From positions 1 to 26,240 of the IMG/VR virus record IMGVR_UViG_3300033416_000029: a DNA stretch of 26,240 nt; one strand, given 5' to 3'. This document shows positions 20,960 to 25,919 of this stretch, piece after piece. The notes under the pieces were generated by a model. The model saw only the letters and a program-made list of their open reading frames with translations. It made no database searches and had not been told where the DNA came from. The number at the start of each line of letters is the position of its first letter. The first letter of the stretch is position 1. The translations under genes were made by a program, and so were the position numbers. The DNA comes from a virus. Taxonomy: Duplodnaviria; Caudoviricetes.

Positions 20960-21187
20960 TTACTTACCCCTCGCTCTAATAGCATGTGCTATAGCTGCTT
21001 TATTTTCGATACATGTTTCTGCAATCTTCGCACACTGTTCTTTTTCATCAGCCCTGATTAGATTTACGAAGGTTTCAAGTTGTGTTTTAGTGAATGTGTA
21101 CTCATGCCCTTGCTCATACACATTTTTGTTATACTCGTACTCAACTGCACCACACAATTTAGCCAATTTAAGTATCTTGCCTGTCAT
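20960..21187 (-). CDS. Hypothetical phage protein
   Basis: C-terminal EKEQCAKIAE...AHAIRARG motif common in phage early ORFs. Confidence 0.7.
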   Translation of the reverse strand: MTGKILKLAKLCGAVEYEYNKNVYEQGHEYTFTKTQLETFVNLIRADEKEQCAKIAETCIENKAAIAHAIRARGK

Positions 21188-21188
21188 A

Positions 21189-21485
21189 TCAACCTTTCAT
21201 TCCCTCTAAGCATTTTAAAATTGCAACTCTGGCCGCCTCGTATTTATCTCGATGATCTTCCGCGTATGCTATAACGCTGGCTCCATCCCCCGATGCTGTT
21301 GCAAATGAACCATTAGAATCAATTAATAAATGTTTATCGATGAAAAGTCTAAAACATCTGGCATCGTCATCGGCTAGCCAAATTGTATAAGTGCCTCCTA
21401 CAATATCGGTAACTTCTACGGAAGCATCAATACCGTACTTTTCTGCCACTCCATTGCTTATCTCAATTTTGTCTTGTTGGTTCAT
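21189..21485 (-). CDS. Hypothetical phage protein
   Basis: GGAGG RBS; closely packed with neighbours. Confidence 0.7.
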   Translation of the reverse strand: MNQQDKIEISNGVAEKYGIDASVEVTDIVGGTYTIWLADDDARCFRLFIDKHLLIDSNGSFATASGDGASVIAYAEDHRDKYEAARVAILKCLEGMKG

Positions 21486-21607
21486 TTTTTAGCCTCCTCC
21501 TTGTATTTAAGTTTAGGTTCGCGCCATATGAACCAGCCCAACCATAGCCCCATTACAATCCCAAAACTGTATGCAGCGATTACTACCCATCCCGGAATGT
21601 TCATCAT
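21482..21607 (-). CDS. 41-aa membrane protein, not in ORF track
   Basis: MMNIPGWVVIAAYSFGIVMGLWLGWFIWREPKLKYKEEAKK*; ATGA overlaps at both ends. Confidence 0.6.
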   Translation of the reverse strand: MMNIPGWVVIAAYSFGIVMGLWLGWFIWREPKLKYKEEAKK

Positions 21608-22083
21608 TCAGCCTTTCTTAGTGCATATAGAGGTGTAGTGCATTCAATGGTTTGTTTCCACATAATCCCATAGTCGCCATTATTTTTAAGCATTCCTATT
21701 GCTACTGGCTCACCTAACCTTCTCTCAATCTCACTCTCAACATAAGCATTAAGATCGTCTAGTGTTGGATAAGTTAAAGTCATTGCATCTTTTAGAGCCG
21801 CATTAAAATCATCATCTAGCGTATAGTCATACTCAAACTCGATACGATTTATTGCCGCTCTAAAATTATTATTCTCGAATTGTGATAGTAATAGGCATTC
21901 TTGTAGGAGTTCCATGCGCTCCAAAACATCGTCACTCGCAAATTGTGTTTTCTGAGTTAATTTACACTTAATTTCCGGCTTTAATGTCTCATATTGAGAT
22001 TTTAAACTTTCGAGTTCTATATACGCCGACTTTGCTGCCGATTCTGCATTCTGAAAACTAATTCGCCATGACTCGTAACTCAT
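21604..22083 (-). CDS. Hypothetical phage protein
   Basis: GGAG RBS before MSYESWRISFQ; ends EPVA...TPLYA. Confidence 0.7.
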   Translation of the reverse strand: MSYESWRISFQNAESAAKSAYIELESLKSQYETLKPEIKCKLTQKTQFASDDVLERMELLQECLLLSQFENNNFRAAINRIEFEYDYTLDDDFNAALKDAMTLTYPTLDDLNAYVESEIERRLGEPVAIGMLKNNGDYGIMWKQTIECTTPLYALRKAE

Positions 22084-22168
22084 AATATACTCCATATAAT
22101 CAATAACTTAATATTTAAAAACACACCTGACCAATTAAAAATAAAATACGTCATGTGGCTAATGTTAG

Positions 22169-22420
22169 TTATACGTCTTGCCCTGTCAGCGCTTTCCACG
22201 ACCGAGCTAGTTCTTCGGCCTGCGTCCCCGGCGTAAATTTTCCATCACTCGTAAAGTGCCAACTTCCGCAATACTCACGGCGAATCTCGCGCCTTGTCGT
22301 TTCGCTTTTCTTCCACCACAAAAATCCGGTTTCTGTTGTTACATCAACATCGGCGAAATACTCCAAGTCAATAGCGGTTCTCCCTTTGGTTTTTGTCCGT
22401 TCAAAATTACTTAGCTTCAT
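22169..22420 (-). CDS. Cassette 1 ORF, hypothetical (83 aa)
   Basis: GGAG RBS before ATG 22420; stop TAA is the complement of TTA in core GTTATAC. Confidence 0.7.
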   Translation of the reverse strand: MKLSNFERTKTKGRTAIDLEYFADVDVTTETGFLWWKKSETTRREIRREYCGSWHFTSDGKFTPGTQAEELARSWKALTGQDV

Positions 22421-22432
22421 TTTCTTCTCCAC

Positions 22433-22493
22433 GTATAACAGTGCCTTCAACGGCGACCGCCCTTACGGGCGTCGCGTTAAGGCGGCGTTAGCC
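22433..22493 (+). repeat. attC site 1
   Basis: R'' GTATAAC, L'' CTT[C]AACG, L' CGTTAAG, R' GTTAGCC; 61 bp. Confidence 0.9.
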
Positions 22494-22657
22494 CGCACAA
22501 AATCCACTATTGGAACATCGCACCAGACGCCATCCTCAAACCTCACTTGGAGAACCCGAAATCGTGAGTGTTGCTGCATATCAATAAAGAAGGCCGCAGG
22601 ATGTTTTGAAACCTCTCGGTCGCCTGCGGGTATATCGAGCCATCGAATGTCTTGCAT
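22463..22657 (-). CDS. Cassette 2 ORF, hypothetical (64 aa)
   Basis: GAAAGG RBS before ATG 22657; RVLQ...WCDVPIV motif; reads into attC1. Confidence 0.65.
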   Translation of the reverse strand: MQDIRWLDIPAGDREVSKHPAAFFIDMQQHSRFRVLQVRFEDGVWCDVPIVDFVRANAALTRRP

Positions 22658-22673
22658 CTTCAACCTTTCTGCG

Positions 22674-22740
22674 GGCTAACCCCGCATTGAACCCGGACTC
22701 GCGGAAAAGCGCCGCGAGCCGGTTAATTTAGACGTTAGGG
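22674..22740 (+). repeat. attC site 2
   Basis: R'' GGCTAAC, L'' ATT[G]AACC, stem CTCGCGG/CCGCGAG, L' GGTTAAT, R' GTTAGGG; 67 bp. Confidence 0.9.
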
Positions 22741-22994
22741 GCCTCGAATGTCAGCGCCTCCATCTTTGCGATGCTCTTGCGCAGAGACACAATCTTCGCC
22801 TTGCGCATTTCCTCTGCCCTGGCAAGCGCTGCTTCCGGCGTCAGGTGCCAGTCGTTACCGTGTGCGTATTGGCTGCCGTACCCGACATTCCCATAGGAAA
22901 TCATCGTTTCACTGCACAACTCCGCATCTACGGCGATGACCCCCTTTGTCAGCGCGTACTGAGTGATGTACGCCTTAATCTTCTCGTCCTTCAC
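22728..22994 (-). CDS. Cassette 3 ORF, hypothetical phage-type protein (88 aa)
   Basis: AAAGGA RBS before GTG 22994; ends EAPNV* inside attC2. Confidence 0.75.
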   Translation of the reverse strand: MKDEKIKAYITQYALTKGVIAVDAELCSETMISYGNVGYGSQYAHGNDWHLTPEAALARAEEMRKAKIVSLRKSIAKMEALTFEAPNV

Positions 22995-23020
22995 TTCGTT
23001 TCCTTTCCGGGGCGCACGGC

Positions 23021-23090
23021 CCATAACCATTCGGTCAACCGGACAGCCCTACGCTGAGCTCAGGTCTGCCGGTTACCTCAGACGTTAGCA
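23021..23090 (+). repeat. attC site 3
   Basis: R'' CCATAAC, L'' GGT[C]AACC, L' GGTTACC, R' GTTAGCA; 70 bp. Confidence 0.88.
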
Positions 23091-23091
23091 G

Positions 23092-23295
23092 TCAATCTAA
23101 TAGCTCATGTTTAAATACAGCCCACATTTGCCAGTTTTGTATTTCCGTTTCAGCTTTTTCAGCAAGCCGAGCTTCTTCTTGTTTGTGTCTTTCTATGGCA
23201 AGCTCTGCACCAGCTTCTGTTTTATGCAAGCTTAGTGTCGCAAAAGCGCTTTCATGTATGCAGTCGTTATAAACAGCAGCGTAAATTTCAGTCAT
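23092..23295 (-). CDS. Cassette 4 ORF, hypothetical (67 aa)
   Basis: GAGAGGA RBS; fully contained between cores. Confidence 0.75.
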   Translation of the reverse strand: MTEIYAAVYNDCIHESAFATLSLHKTEAGAELAIERHKQEEARLAEKAETEIQNWQMWAVFKHELLD

Positions 23296-23318
23296 AATAG
23301 TCCTCTCAATATTGTTAC

Positions 23319-23375
23319 TGCTAACCCATCCATCAAGCGGGACTTCTATGAAGCCCCTTATGTCAAACGTTGGGC
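23319..23375 (+). repeat. attC site 4
   Basis: R'' TGCTAAC, L'' CAT[C]AAGC, L' CCTTATG, R' GTTGGGC; 57 bp. Confidence 0.88.
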
Positions 23376-23632
23376 CTCATTCCCTTGATGTTCCCGAGCT
23401 TGCCTTTCGCCTGTTCCAGCCGCATGCGCAACGAGGCAACGTCCCGCTCTGCTTCTGCGATCAAAAACGAGTGTGCGGCTTCCCATGTGTCGTGCCAGTT
23501 ACTCCAGTCCGAAACCTTGTTTTCCCTACTACTCCGAAATCCATTTCGCGCCGGTAGCACAACCTGTTTGTCTGTTTCGCGATCGACTTCCAGCGCCTCT
23601 ATCTTGTCGAATCTTGTCCTGTACTTAATCAT
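23363..23632 (-). CDS. Cassette 5 ORF, hypothetical phage-type protein (89 aa)
   Basis: AAAGGA RBS before ATG 23632; ends GMRPNV* inside attC4. Confidence 0.75.
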   Translation of the reverse strand: MIKYRTRFDKIEALEVDRETDKQVVLPARNGFRSSRENKVSDWSNWHDTWEAAHSFLIAEAERDVASLRMRLEQAKGKLGNIKGMRPNV

Positions 23633-23662
23633 GCTTTTGTCCTTTCTTCGTAACCAACTGAG

Positions 23663-23728
23663 GCCCAACCCATCGGTGAACCGGACCTTCGCAAAAAGCG
23701 CGAAGGCCGGTTACCTCAGACGTTAGAC
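23663..23728 (+). repeat. attC site 5
   Basis: R'' GCCCAAC, L'' GGT[G]AACC, stem CCTTCGC/GCGAAGG, L' GGTTACC, R' GTTAGAC; 66 bp. Confidence 0.9.
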
Positions 23729-23902
23729 ACCTAATTGCGCACTATTGCTAAACCAGTCGCTTATCTTCGTTGCCAGTTCTTTTAATTTAGCTGGTCGTTT
23801 GCTATTGCAAAACCGTATTAAATCCCAAAACGCTGTCGCATCTTCTTCTGTTTCAAGAGTAATGGTTATAGGTTGAAATTTTGCTTTTTGTTCAAGTTTC
23901 AT
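23723..23902 (-). CDS. Cassette 6 ORF, hypothetical (59 aa), not in ORF track
   Basis: AAGGAG RBS; MKLEQKAKFQPITITLETEEDATAFWDLIRF...SNSAQLGV*; stop is the complement of TTA in GTTAGAC. Confidence 0.75.
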   Translation of the reverse strand: MKLEQKAKFQPITITLETEEDATAFWDLIRFCNSKRPAKLKELATKISDWFSNSAQLGV

Positions 23903-23922
23903 TTAAGTCTCCTTTAGATCGT

Positions 23923-23977
23923 GGCTAACCCTGCATTGGTATGGGACGCTTCGCGCCCCACAATTCAAACGTTAGGC
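23923..23977 (+). repeat. attC site 6 (slightly degenerate L boxes)
   Basis: R'' GGCTAAC, L'' ATTGGTAT, stem GGGACGC/GCGCCC, L' CCACAAT, R' GTTAGGC; 55 bp. Confidence 0.8.
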
Positions 23978-23998: not shown

Positions 23999-24202
23999 TT
24001 ACAGCTTCGTCGCTTCAATAAGATTATCAATATGTACATTAATAGCTTCCCCAAGATTGCTAACTGCTACAACATTGTTTGCATTGCCAAGTGCCACAGC
24101 AATATCTCTAATAGCCTCTTTAGCTTCTCGTATAGCTTTGTTCTTGGCGCAAATACGACCATACTCCGCCATCTTTTCTATGTTGTCGTAATTATCAATC
24201 AT
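23999..24202 (-). CDS. Hypothetical protein
   Basis: AAAGGA RBS; helical 67 aa. Confidence 0.65.
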   Translation of the reverse strand: MIDNYDNIEKMAEYGRICAKNKAIREAKEAIRDIAVALGNANNVVAVSNLGEAINVHIDNLIEATKL

Positions 24203-24228
24203 ATCAATGTCCTTTGTAAATGTTGTAG

Positions 24229-24738
24229 TTAAAACTGAATATCGTCCTCAAAATAATCAAACCCAGACCCGCCTGCTGCAGGTTTAGCCGCAGCTTGTGC
24301 CGGTGCTGGTCGTGCTTGACCCTGACTTGGTGGCGCTTGATTGTAATCGCTATCACCTCCGCCCTGATCCATACCGCCATCATAGCTGGCATTTGACCCG
24401 GCGCTGTCACGACCACCCAACATTTGCATCTGGTCAGCGATAATTTCCGTGGTATAGCGGTCCTGGCCTTCCTTGGTTTGCCATTTGCGCGTTTGCAAGC
24501 GGCCTTCAACATATACCGGACGGCCTTTTTTGAGATACTCTCCGGCAATTTCTGCAAGCTTGCGGTACATCACAATATTGTGCCACTCGGTACGCTCCTG
24601 CTTCGCGCCTGATTTGTCTTTCCAGCTGTCAGTCGTTGCAATACTAAAATTACATACTGCCTCGCCATTAGGCATGTAGCGCACTTCCGGGTCGCGCCCT
24701 AAATTGCCTACCAAAATCACTTTATTCACTGATGCCAT
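24229..24738 (-). CDS. ssb: Single-stranded DNA-binding protein
   Basis: [21 protein letters not shown]...TEWH...[14 protein letters not shown] fold, G/Q/A/P linker, acidic tip EDDIQF. Confidence 0.97.
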
Positions 24739-24739
24739 G

Positions 24740-25228
24740 TTATGCCGCCTTATCTATTGGCGTTAGTTTTTCTTTACGTTTTGCCATGATTGAGTCATAG
24801 CCTTCCGGTGTTGCCCATGCAGGTAATGCAGGTGTTTCTTTAATGTGCTTATACTCATCTAGTGCAACCCATACATTAGGGAGTTGATAAAGATAGCGAC
24901 CTATGCCAAACATGACAGCAGCACGTTTAAACGCATCACTAATCGCCCCTTTTTCTGCTTCTATATCGCTATCACCTGCACCATTAGAGCGTGTAATCCA
25001 AGTGCCATCAACCAATACGATAATCTCGCAAATGGTCTTATTATCTGCATGGCTGTATCTGCATTGCCAGTTCATACCGAACACATCATCAAGCCTAGCC
25101 ATCACATCACGCGCGTCAATATAAGCTAGTGCAATACCTTTTGATTTATCTTTGCTGGTTGCACCTACACGCCAGCTAATTGACTTCACTGGGAACGGTC
25201 TTTTAAGTGCTTCTAATAATTCATTCAT
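24740..25228 (-). CDS. Rad52/Rad22-family (Sak-like) single-strand annealing protein
   Basis: [42 protein letters not shown]. Confidence 0.9.
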
Positions 25229-25373
25229 GATGTTCACCTTTTGCTAATGCTTCTAAGTATTGCTGATATTCCTGTTGTTCTTTCTGGTTATGTAGCCAGC
25301 ATTCATATTCTTCATGGTTAAGTTGCAATTCCCGATCATCACCATAATCATGAATGTATGAATCATTACTCAT
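25221..25373 (-). CDS. Small acidic protein (50 aa), not in ORF track
   Basis: AGGAG RBS; [50 protein letters not shown]; overlaps both neighbours. Confidence 0.6.
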   Translation of the reverse strand: MSNDSYIHDYGDDRELQLNHEEYECWLHNQKEQQEYQQYLEALAKGEHHE

Positions 25374-25535: not shown

Positions 25536-25919
25536 CTATTCCTTTGGTCGATAACAATACAAGGGTTTAGGTCTATAATCATTGCAATTCTTGTTACCTT
25601 TTATTTTGTTACATTTTGAACATAGAACTTGTAAATTTGTAAATTCAAACGTTAATTCAGGATAAAATTTACGAGGTTTTATATGATCAACATTTATTTT
25701 TATAGTATTAGATGCACATACTCCACATTTCATACATTTATACCCATATACAGATAAAACATTTTTTCTAAGCTCTTTCCATTCCTTTGAATAAAGTGCA
25801 GAGTTTGATGTTTTAGTTAAAATTGCAACTTCACAATCAGTCATTTTTGAAATTTTGTGCATTGATGAAATTTTCAAAGCTTTTTTGTTAAGTCTAATTT
25901 TTAACGCTTTTGTAGACAT
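25536..25919 (-). CDS. HNH endonuclease
   Basis: CMKCG, VDHIKP, NLQVLCSKCNKIKG motifs. Confidence 0.92.
   Translation of the reverse strand: MSTKALKIRLNKKALKISSMHKISKMTDCEVAILTKTSNSALYSKEWKELRKNVLSVYGYKCMKCGVCASNTIKINVDHIKPRKFYPELTFEFTNLQVLCSKCNKIKGNKNCNDYRPKPLYCYRPKE

Follow-up and report, generated by a model that had tools for sequence, protein, structure and literature searches.

Integron-type cassettes with inverted genes in the early region of a tailed phage

We analyzed a virus record of 26,240 nt assigned to Caudoviricetes (IMG/VR record IMGVR_UViG_3300033416_000029, 70% complete; the whole stretch is hereafter called the window) and found that the early region of this phage contains six integron-type cassettes, with no integrase encoded in the record and with all cassette genes on the strand opposite to the bacterial norm. 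Coordinates of all features are shown in Table 1. We consider it likely that the cassettes were inserted singly by an integron integrase (IntI) supplied in trans, and that they are read from the phage early promoter. The array apparently belongs to a phage variant of the integron that has not been described so far; clusters of attC sites lacking integrases (CALINs) have themselves already been published in phages.

The initial annotation had proposed twelve recombination cores in this region and had noted that the core at the start of each cassette complements the core at its own end. All twelve were recovered at exactly the same positions and with the same degree of pairing (Table 1). When the invariant GTT was excluded, own start and own end cores matched at 34 of 36 positions (positions 4-9), whereas the R'' and R' cores within the integrated sites, which had been said to pair less well, matched at 13 of the same 36. 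In a permutation test, the true pairing was the only one of 720 to reach 34 (mean over all 720, 17.7), and the outcome was again 1/720 when positions 8-11 alone, outside the 7-nt core, were considered. In silico circularization, also suggested in that annotation, lowered the fold energy of the minus (bottom) strand in 6/6 cassettes, by 0.7 to 8.7 kcal/mol. Such self-pairing is the ordinary, textbook signature of integron cassettes. In a comparison set of attC-to-attC units shorter than 1,000 nt, viral cassettes (n = 198) had a mean self-match of 5.03 of 6 and bacterial ones (n = 134) a mean of 5.19 of 6; sets of six cassettes drawn at random attained 34/36 with a probability of 0.14 (viral) or 0.17 (bacterial). 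Because 14-17% of random draws do equally well, the additional suggestion that near-perfect matches indicate recent activity is unsupported.

The attC sites themselves were examined with a detector that combines a matrix with core pairing and was trained on other loci (a first version based on a regular expression had caught 4/6 window sites). The window yielded exactly six attC sites, whereas shuffled DNA (238,760 nt) yielded none. The sites are 55-70 nt long and have R'' (RYYYAAC-type) and R' (GTTRRRY-type) cores, spacers of 5-6 nt and paired L''/L' boxes. In five of them, two extra bases in the left arm of the plus strand leave a G and a T extrahelical once the minus strand folds; the partly degenerate attC6, which had the lowest detector score (31.7), has a 3-nt bulge in place of the two single extrahelical bases. 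By the usual convention, the strand bearing the extrahelical bases is the recombining bottom strand, and this convention was anchored here by a bacterial control set. The minus strand is the attC bottom strand and the plus strand is the top strand; that IntI recombines the bottom strand would be supported indirectly by boundaries common to several genomes. It should be noted that the span originally given for the array had correct cores, but its end at 23929 truncates attC6; the last R' of the array lies at 23971-23977. With at least two attC sites and no match to the tyrosine recombinase family (PF00589) anywhere in the 26,240-nt record, which covers 22 kb toward the array head and 2.3 kb on the other side, the array is a CALIN. 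No intI lies beside it as in a complete integron, nor is there an attI-side Pc promoter that drives the genes; a promoter at the head would be unable to read them because they point toward the head.

In canonical cassettes, the gene is on the top strand and attC lies behind its stop codon. All six genes of the array are on the bottom strand, and in each of them a ribosome-binding leader follows immediately after the inverted R''. Clear homologues or a family on the minus strand could be identified for 5/6 genes. The cassettes are a compositional mixture, with GC content at third codon positions (GC3) spanning 0.28 to 0.73, and this range, the attC anatomy and homologues of cassettes 2 and 5 that end at the cores uphold the earlier view of independently inserted mobile units. 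The gene of cassette 2 encodes 64 aa as integrated and 58 aa in its own circle; its seven homologues agree with it at 32-54 of 56 residues ahead of the junction codon and at 0-4 of 7 beyond it, and five of the seven keep the Asn at the junction codon itself. A homologue of cassette 5 (80% DNA identity) in phage L343 has the same boundaries and is located between two other attC sites. In that phage (L343:1066-1770), the frame of the upstream cassette continues without a stop across the attC and into this homologue, which could give a fusion of 234 aa.

The cassette 1 protein has 16 homologues (51-88% identical), and phage L087 has a 37% homologue that is likewise inverted and begins at the R'' of an attC; no family scored above the cut-off for this protein and its Atlas search was blank. 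Five phage homologues of cassette 3 (44-49%) all lack an adjoining attC. The cassette 5 protein has phage homologues of 39-86% identity, and its nearest Atlas clusters are 60-100% viral, with no Pfam family; four contigs (L344-L347) carry homologues without an adjoining attC. The existence of attC-free phage homologues of cassettes 3 and 5 should therefore allow the birth of cassettes to be traced on trees. Contigs of sequencing runs X1 and X2 match the leader of cassette 4 and the left arm of attC4 (window positions 23301-23341) and then diverge, which suggests that a second cassette with this leader exists in them. The stop codon of gene 6, like that of gene 1, lies in the inverted R' core. 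For the cassette proteins as a whole, the only matches above the cut-off were PHROGs of unknown function, and the array DNA had no match in 50,697 GenBank phages.

Table 1. Features of the cassette array and its surroundings in the window
Feature	Position	Strand	Remarks
Four small resident open reading frames (ORFs) past the head, downstream	20960..22095	-	Slot of intI and int in related phage integrons
attI-like array head, crossover G^TT 22168/22169	22154..22174	+	Weak match to host-type attI
Cassette 1 (body + attC1)	22169..22487	+	Self-match 9/9; GC3 0.48
Cassette 1 gene, 83 aa, inverted	22169..22420	-	Stop is TAA of inverted R' core
attC1	22433..22493	+	Top strand +, extrahelical G and T on -; alignment, fold, detector
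Cassette 2 gene, 64 aa, inverted	22463..22657	-	Crosses junction, stop inside attC1
Cassette 2 (body + attC2)	22488..22734	+	Self-match 11/11
attC2	22674..22740	+	Alignment, fold, detector
Cassette 3 gene, 88 aa, inverted	22728..22994	-	Stop from attC2 spacer; phrog_22725, E 1e-19
Cassette 3 (body + attC3)	22735..23084	+	Self-match 9/10; GC3 0.73
attC3	23021..23090	+	Alignment, fold, detector
Cassette 4 (body + attC4)	23085..23369	+	Self-match 9/9; GC3 0.28
Cassette 4 gene, 67 aa, inverted	23092..23295	-	One other cluster, 88% identity
attC4	23319..23375	+	Alignment, fold, detector
Cassette 5 gene, 89 aa, inverted	23363..23632	-	Stop from attC4 spacer
Cassette 5 (body + attC5)	23370..23722	+	Self-match 11/11
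attC5	23663..23728	+	Alignment, fold, detector
Cassette 6 (body + attC6)	23723..23971	+	Self-match 8/9; GC3 0.28
Cassette 6 gene, 59 aa, inverted	23723..23902	-	Strong ribosome-binding site; faint PHROG match, E 6e-4
attC6	23923..23977	+	Most degenerate site; fold, detector
Phage early genes, upstream in transcription	23999..25237	-	67-aa ORF, SSB, Rad52/Sak-like annealing protein
SSB	24229-24738	-	phrog_44
Rad52/Sak-like annealing protein	24740-25237	-	PF04098

The inverted gene orientation is not peculiar to the window. Using one attC pattern, we collected at least 122 viral loci (∼230 estimated in the collection) and at least 132 bacterial loci (∼1,400 estimated); 5 viral and 33 bacterial pattern matches were then dropped for want of an R'' core. 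Gene strands were assigned with our own codon-based caller; the contigs were not dereplicated by virus species, and the 313 cassette proteins fell into 288 families. Among the matches listed, to which all counts of this comparison refer, the gene on the R'' side was inverted at 93 of 114 viral sites (10 canonical, 11 uncalled) and at 11 of 101 bacterial sites (59 canonical, 31 uncalled). For whole cassettes, excluding the two of Tetrasphaera phage TJE1, 179 of 211 viral ones were inverted, 8 canonical and 24 uncalled, versus 6, 118 and 24 of 148 bacterial ones, and at the level of contigs inversion was found in 67/70 viral and 1/39 bacterial cases. Inversion of the gene relative to attC is thus the rule in phages. 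Canonical cassettes occur in viral records L400, L461, L091 and L150; the IntI of L400 is of the phage clade and that of L461 is bacterial-type. Of the ORFs sampled, 34 of 100 inverted viral ones (drawn from 172) matched PHROGs, versus 9 of 50 bacterial cassette ORFs (drawn from 108), and the 100 viral ones included eight methyltransferases, two Lar-like proteins, an RNA ligase, a PAPS reductase and an endonuclease VII. The stop codon came from the neighboring attC in 46/145 viral genes, and 5/85 bacterial genes ran past their own R''.

IntI was found in only 1/50 array-bearing virus records tested (G044), which holds a complete phage integron. That record contains intI, attI and 14 attC sites with all genes inverted, beside a phage integrase; the attC sites span the record ends (L382:7646-14914, L383:1-3576), and the cargo includes methyltransferases and an RNA ligase. 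An alignment search for IntI yielded 178 relatives in viral contigs, of which 80 were kept. When 1,500 nt upstream of the viral intI were available, attC sites were present there in 46/55 cases, always in the normal geometry to intI, and the cassettes upstream were mostly inverted (119 inverted, 7 canonical and 14 uncalled; 37/40 loci wholly inverted). Six of the seven viral IntIs tested passed the TIGR02249 cut-off, and the truncated L455 fell just below it. A tree was built from 78 viral and 61 bacterial IntIs, all selected for similarity to integron integrases (in the case of the viral set and half of the bacterial one, for similarity to G044); 68 viral rows and one prophage row (L470) formed one branch (SH-aLRT 98, FastTree 1.0; midpoint root only). 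The other ten of the 78 viral rows, including four with inverted arrays, were placed outside this main clade, which leaves the idea that all phage IntIs arose once unsupported. In addition, 41 viral array heads share an attI consensus of their own. A terminase check of 39 IntI-bearing or cassette-sharing records was positive in only 5 and was too insensitive to be used; phage identity was judged instead from the gene lists of G044, G821 and G620. The last of these is a prophage edge in a bacterial genome (L498:494-6219), where an array of inverted genes with seven attC sites is followed by intI, by a short ORF resembling an excisionase, by int and finally by chromosomal genes.

Comparison between genomes indicates which unit moves. 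Phages L116 and L148 have an inverted cassette in common (96% identity) with different neighbors, and the identity spans from one G^TT to the G^TT of the attC that precedes the gene. The attC before the gene is 100% identical and the one behind it 63%, and both flanks differ; these alignments show that an inverted cassette is shared, with exact boundaries, between genomes other than that of the window. In a bacterial chromosomal integron (G470, L494:14422-16000), a close homologue with the same G^TT boundaries occupies the attI-proximal position; this integron sits between sdh and gltA genes, and almost all of its other cassette genes with a strand call are canonical. It appears, therefore, that inverted cassettes are handled with normal polarity, by chromosomal IntI as well. 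In L148 (L148:2502-2610), the shared cassette has 30 additional nt, and its gene crosses the neighboring attC and encodes 153 aa, versus 121 aa in L116. The order of cassettes therefore alters protein C-termini.

The head of the array in the window bears a weak resemblance to an attI site. The motif CTA-N6-GTT occurred in 13 of 34 viral array heads (a set that also contains some attC sites missed by the detector), in 5/554 background GTT sites and in 0/211 internal junctions, and the window head fits it. With a matrix made from 13 bacterial heads adjacent to intI, the window head ranked 8th of 1011 GTT sites, and with the phage attI matrix it ranked 47th of 1011. AttI-like heads with no intI within 3 kb were also seen at three bacterial loci (L212, L224 and L274). 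The likely host family was suggested by SSB, which is 84% identical to that of Methylobacillus arboreus, with best matches of 59-75% in four other chosen genomes; a Methylophilaceae-like host is consistent with these values. IntI is encoded in 66/201 sampled genomes of this family. Because the head resembles host-type attI, if weakly, a host IntI probably acts in trans on the array, and this enzyme would more probably be the chromosomal IntI of the host than a phage IntI.

We propose that recombination between two attC sites (attC x attC), with the minus strand folded, would excise a cassette, which would take along the attC located before its start codon. The circle would then re-pair its two cores and insert at the head G^TT (22168). 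If insertion takes place at the head, cassette 1 would be the newest and cassette 6 the oldest, and the newest one, at 22169, would come last in a transcript expressed from the early promoter. Inversion would keep the genes aligned with the early transcript, and the recombining strand would be the non-template strand. In a lambdoid layout, the recombining strand would also be the lagging-strand template, where folding should be favored. According to the available text of PMC5371416, folding and recombination increase when the bottom strand is the lagging template, an arrangement avoided by 25/30 sedentary integrons. In genes that run with a replication fork, the coding strand is the lagging template, and inversion would therefore provide a phage with expression as well as fast shuffling.

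Other explanations have to be considered. A possible but rather unlikely one is that the array was assembled as part of a complete phage integron, in a phage with its own IntI, and is now an inert relic that reached this phage in a single block, by homologous recombination of the Sak type or by illegitimate recombination, and no longer shuffles. Complete phage integrons with inverted arrays are common, IntI is rare in array-bearing records as mentioned above, attC6 is degenerate, no excised forms appear in the X1 and X2 contigs, and a Rad52/Sak gene adjoins the array, all of which would fit; against this, the head agrees better with host-type than with phage-clade attI, 5/6 attC sites are intact and GC3 still varies widely among the cassettes. 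It is improbable that the array is canonical when read on the minus strand, with the plus strand recombining and each attC belonging to the gene that ends at it. The minus strand indeed shows an ordinary order of core, ribosome-binding site, gene and stop in an inverse core, and self-pairing is equal under both polarities, but the extrahelical bases are on the minus strand, it is the attC before the gene that travels with the shared cassette of L116 and L148, a result that already contradicts this reading for the class as a whole, and all attC sites upstream of viral intI have the normal intI/attC geometry. Hardly more credible, and if anything slightly less so, is the idea that the block was excised from the chromosomal integron of a bacterium and entered the phage in reverse orientation: the attC types are the same as in proteobacterial genomes and such capture has been described for Vibrio prophages in the accessible text of Qi et al. 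(PMC9892861), but inverted cassettes are rare in bacteria, homologues of cassettes 1, 3 and 5 for which the context is available are in phage contigs, and a flipped block could not invert the gene relative to attC because both would turn together. Finally, terminators or repetitive extragenic palindromic (REP)-like repeats with incidental matches, already rejected in the initial annotation, are refuted here: although the hairpins are intergenic palindromes, they have full attC anatomy with the corresponding folds and detector hits, lack a GC stem with T-run and the many near-identical copies of REP elements, the true core pairing is unique, the four terminator-like sites of the region are all away from attC sites, and three genes run into the hairpins.

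Several observations weigh against single insertion by an enzyme supplied in trans. No excised-form joints were found in sequencing runs X1 and X2 (contigs only); X1 may be the run from which the window came. The head score is just 1.6 with the host-type matrix, and seven unrelated GTT sites of the window outscore it. About 30% of the phage lies outside the record, including the replication origin and possibly an intI. The host call comes from one gene (SSB) compared with five genomes of our own choice, and the cassette 1 protein was absent from 361 searched genomes of the host family. The attC sites of L343 differ from those of the window on both sides of the shared cassette, and no near-identical copy of any window cassette with its own attC was found. 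Nor was a close empty-site relative detected in viral contigs or metagenomes: the 67-aa gene gave 0/55 candidates in viral contigs, a 159-aa gene used in metagenomes gave the window's own record plus seven matches of only 21-38 residues, and 3/80 Sak relatives had attC sites, the closest one (L001) ending ∼1 kb past Sak. As for the inversion rule, 10 cassettes beside bacterial intI were inverted (34 canonical, 15 uncalled); two of the ten are in a prophage, one is the phage cassette of G470, six are short weak ORFs (scores 3-11) and the remaining one (L360) looks real.

The surroundings are those of a tailed phage. PHROGs matches on the plus strand comprise terminase, portal, scaffold, capsid, head closure, DNA ejection proteins and holin, a P22-like podovirus set, whereas SSB matched PHROGs on the minus strand; Pfam added a Rad52-like protein and an HNH protein. 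The array is situated in the minus-strand early region between SSB on one side and four small ORFs, which converge on the lysis genes, on the other. SSB is host-like in sequence and has a GC3 of 0.48, versus 0.24-0.38 in other long phage genes, as if it had been taken recently from the host. An HNH endonuclease gene (25536-25919) lies upstream of the early genes and an acetyltransferase-like ORF (1344-1802) ahead of terminase. A sigma-70-like minus-strand site is present at 26074-26047; the promoter scan was at chance level (12 found versus 13.0 expected), and no LexA-type box was found in the window.

Since most of the phage arrays examined are inverted, phages likely keep a gene pool of their own that is swapped by integron enzymes. 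With less assurance than for the array itself, we lean toward a broader view in which tailed phages run a mirror-image integron system, consisting of an IntI branch with its own attI and of integrase-less arrays served in trans. Such a system would shuffle backwards cassettes that derive from the early genes of phages (those for methyltransferases, Lar-like proteins and further small proteins), would be a site-specific source of phage mosaicism and counter-defence, and would occasionally deliver cassettes into bacterial chromosomal integrons. Integrons have been viewed as bacterial devices and recently as reservoirs of defence against phages. If phages have a version of their own with reversed cassettes, it would offer a site-specific route to gene-by-gene mosaicism of the early region, which is normally ascribed to illegitimate or short-homology recombination, and the link between attC strand, transcription and replication becomes directly testable.

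Among known systems, phage CALINs are the closest. Seventeen of them, together with recombination of five phage attC sites, are reported in the available text of Qi, Rajabal, Ghaly, Tetu and Gillings (2023, PMC9892861), and the examples there, such as Tetrasphaera phage TJE1, resemble the window in having at least two attC sites, no integrase, small genes and a tailed phage as carrier. DNA methyltransferases are a common cargo in the class of phage cassettes (8/100 viral cassette ORFs). TJE1 is unlike the window in that it is canonical, with three attC sites and its genes all on the plus strand. The main text of PMC9892861 mentions no genes inverted relative to attC, no attI-like head class of phages and no phage IntI clade, and the complete integrons it treats are pieces of bacterial ones. 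No description of inverted phage cassettes or of a phage IntI clade was found in the literature searched, most subscription journals being beyond reach. Loot and colleagues are said to have shown in 2024 that cassettes insert at secondary (attG) sites and that IntI can seed arrays away from intI; in contrast to such insertion, phage heads as a class resemble attI above chance, and attG sites leave the inverted genes unexplained. Class 1 mobile and betaproteobacterial chromosomal integrons share attC anatomy, the G^TT crossover, self-complementary ends and cassette size with the array, as far as they are covered in the accessible text of Cury et al. (2016, PMC4889954), and canonical integrons share the intI/attC geometry with the phage relatives. 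However, genes of the phage type are encoded by the bottom strand of attC and run in the direction of intI if there is one, with attC located ahead of the start codon. The genes would be expressed from the end opposite the head, and the newest cassette would therefore be last in the transcript. Finally, integrons with an inverted integrase (Treponema type; PMC4889954 and PMC13323075, from the text available) are similar in that intI and cassette genes are on one strand, but in the Treponema type intI is flipped relative to attC, whereas in the phage type the genes are flipped and the relation between intI and attC is normal.

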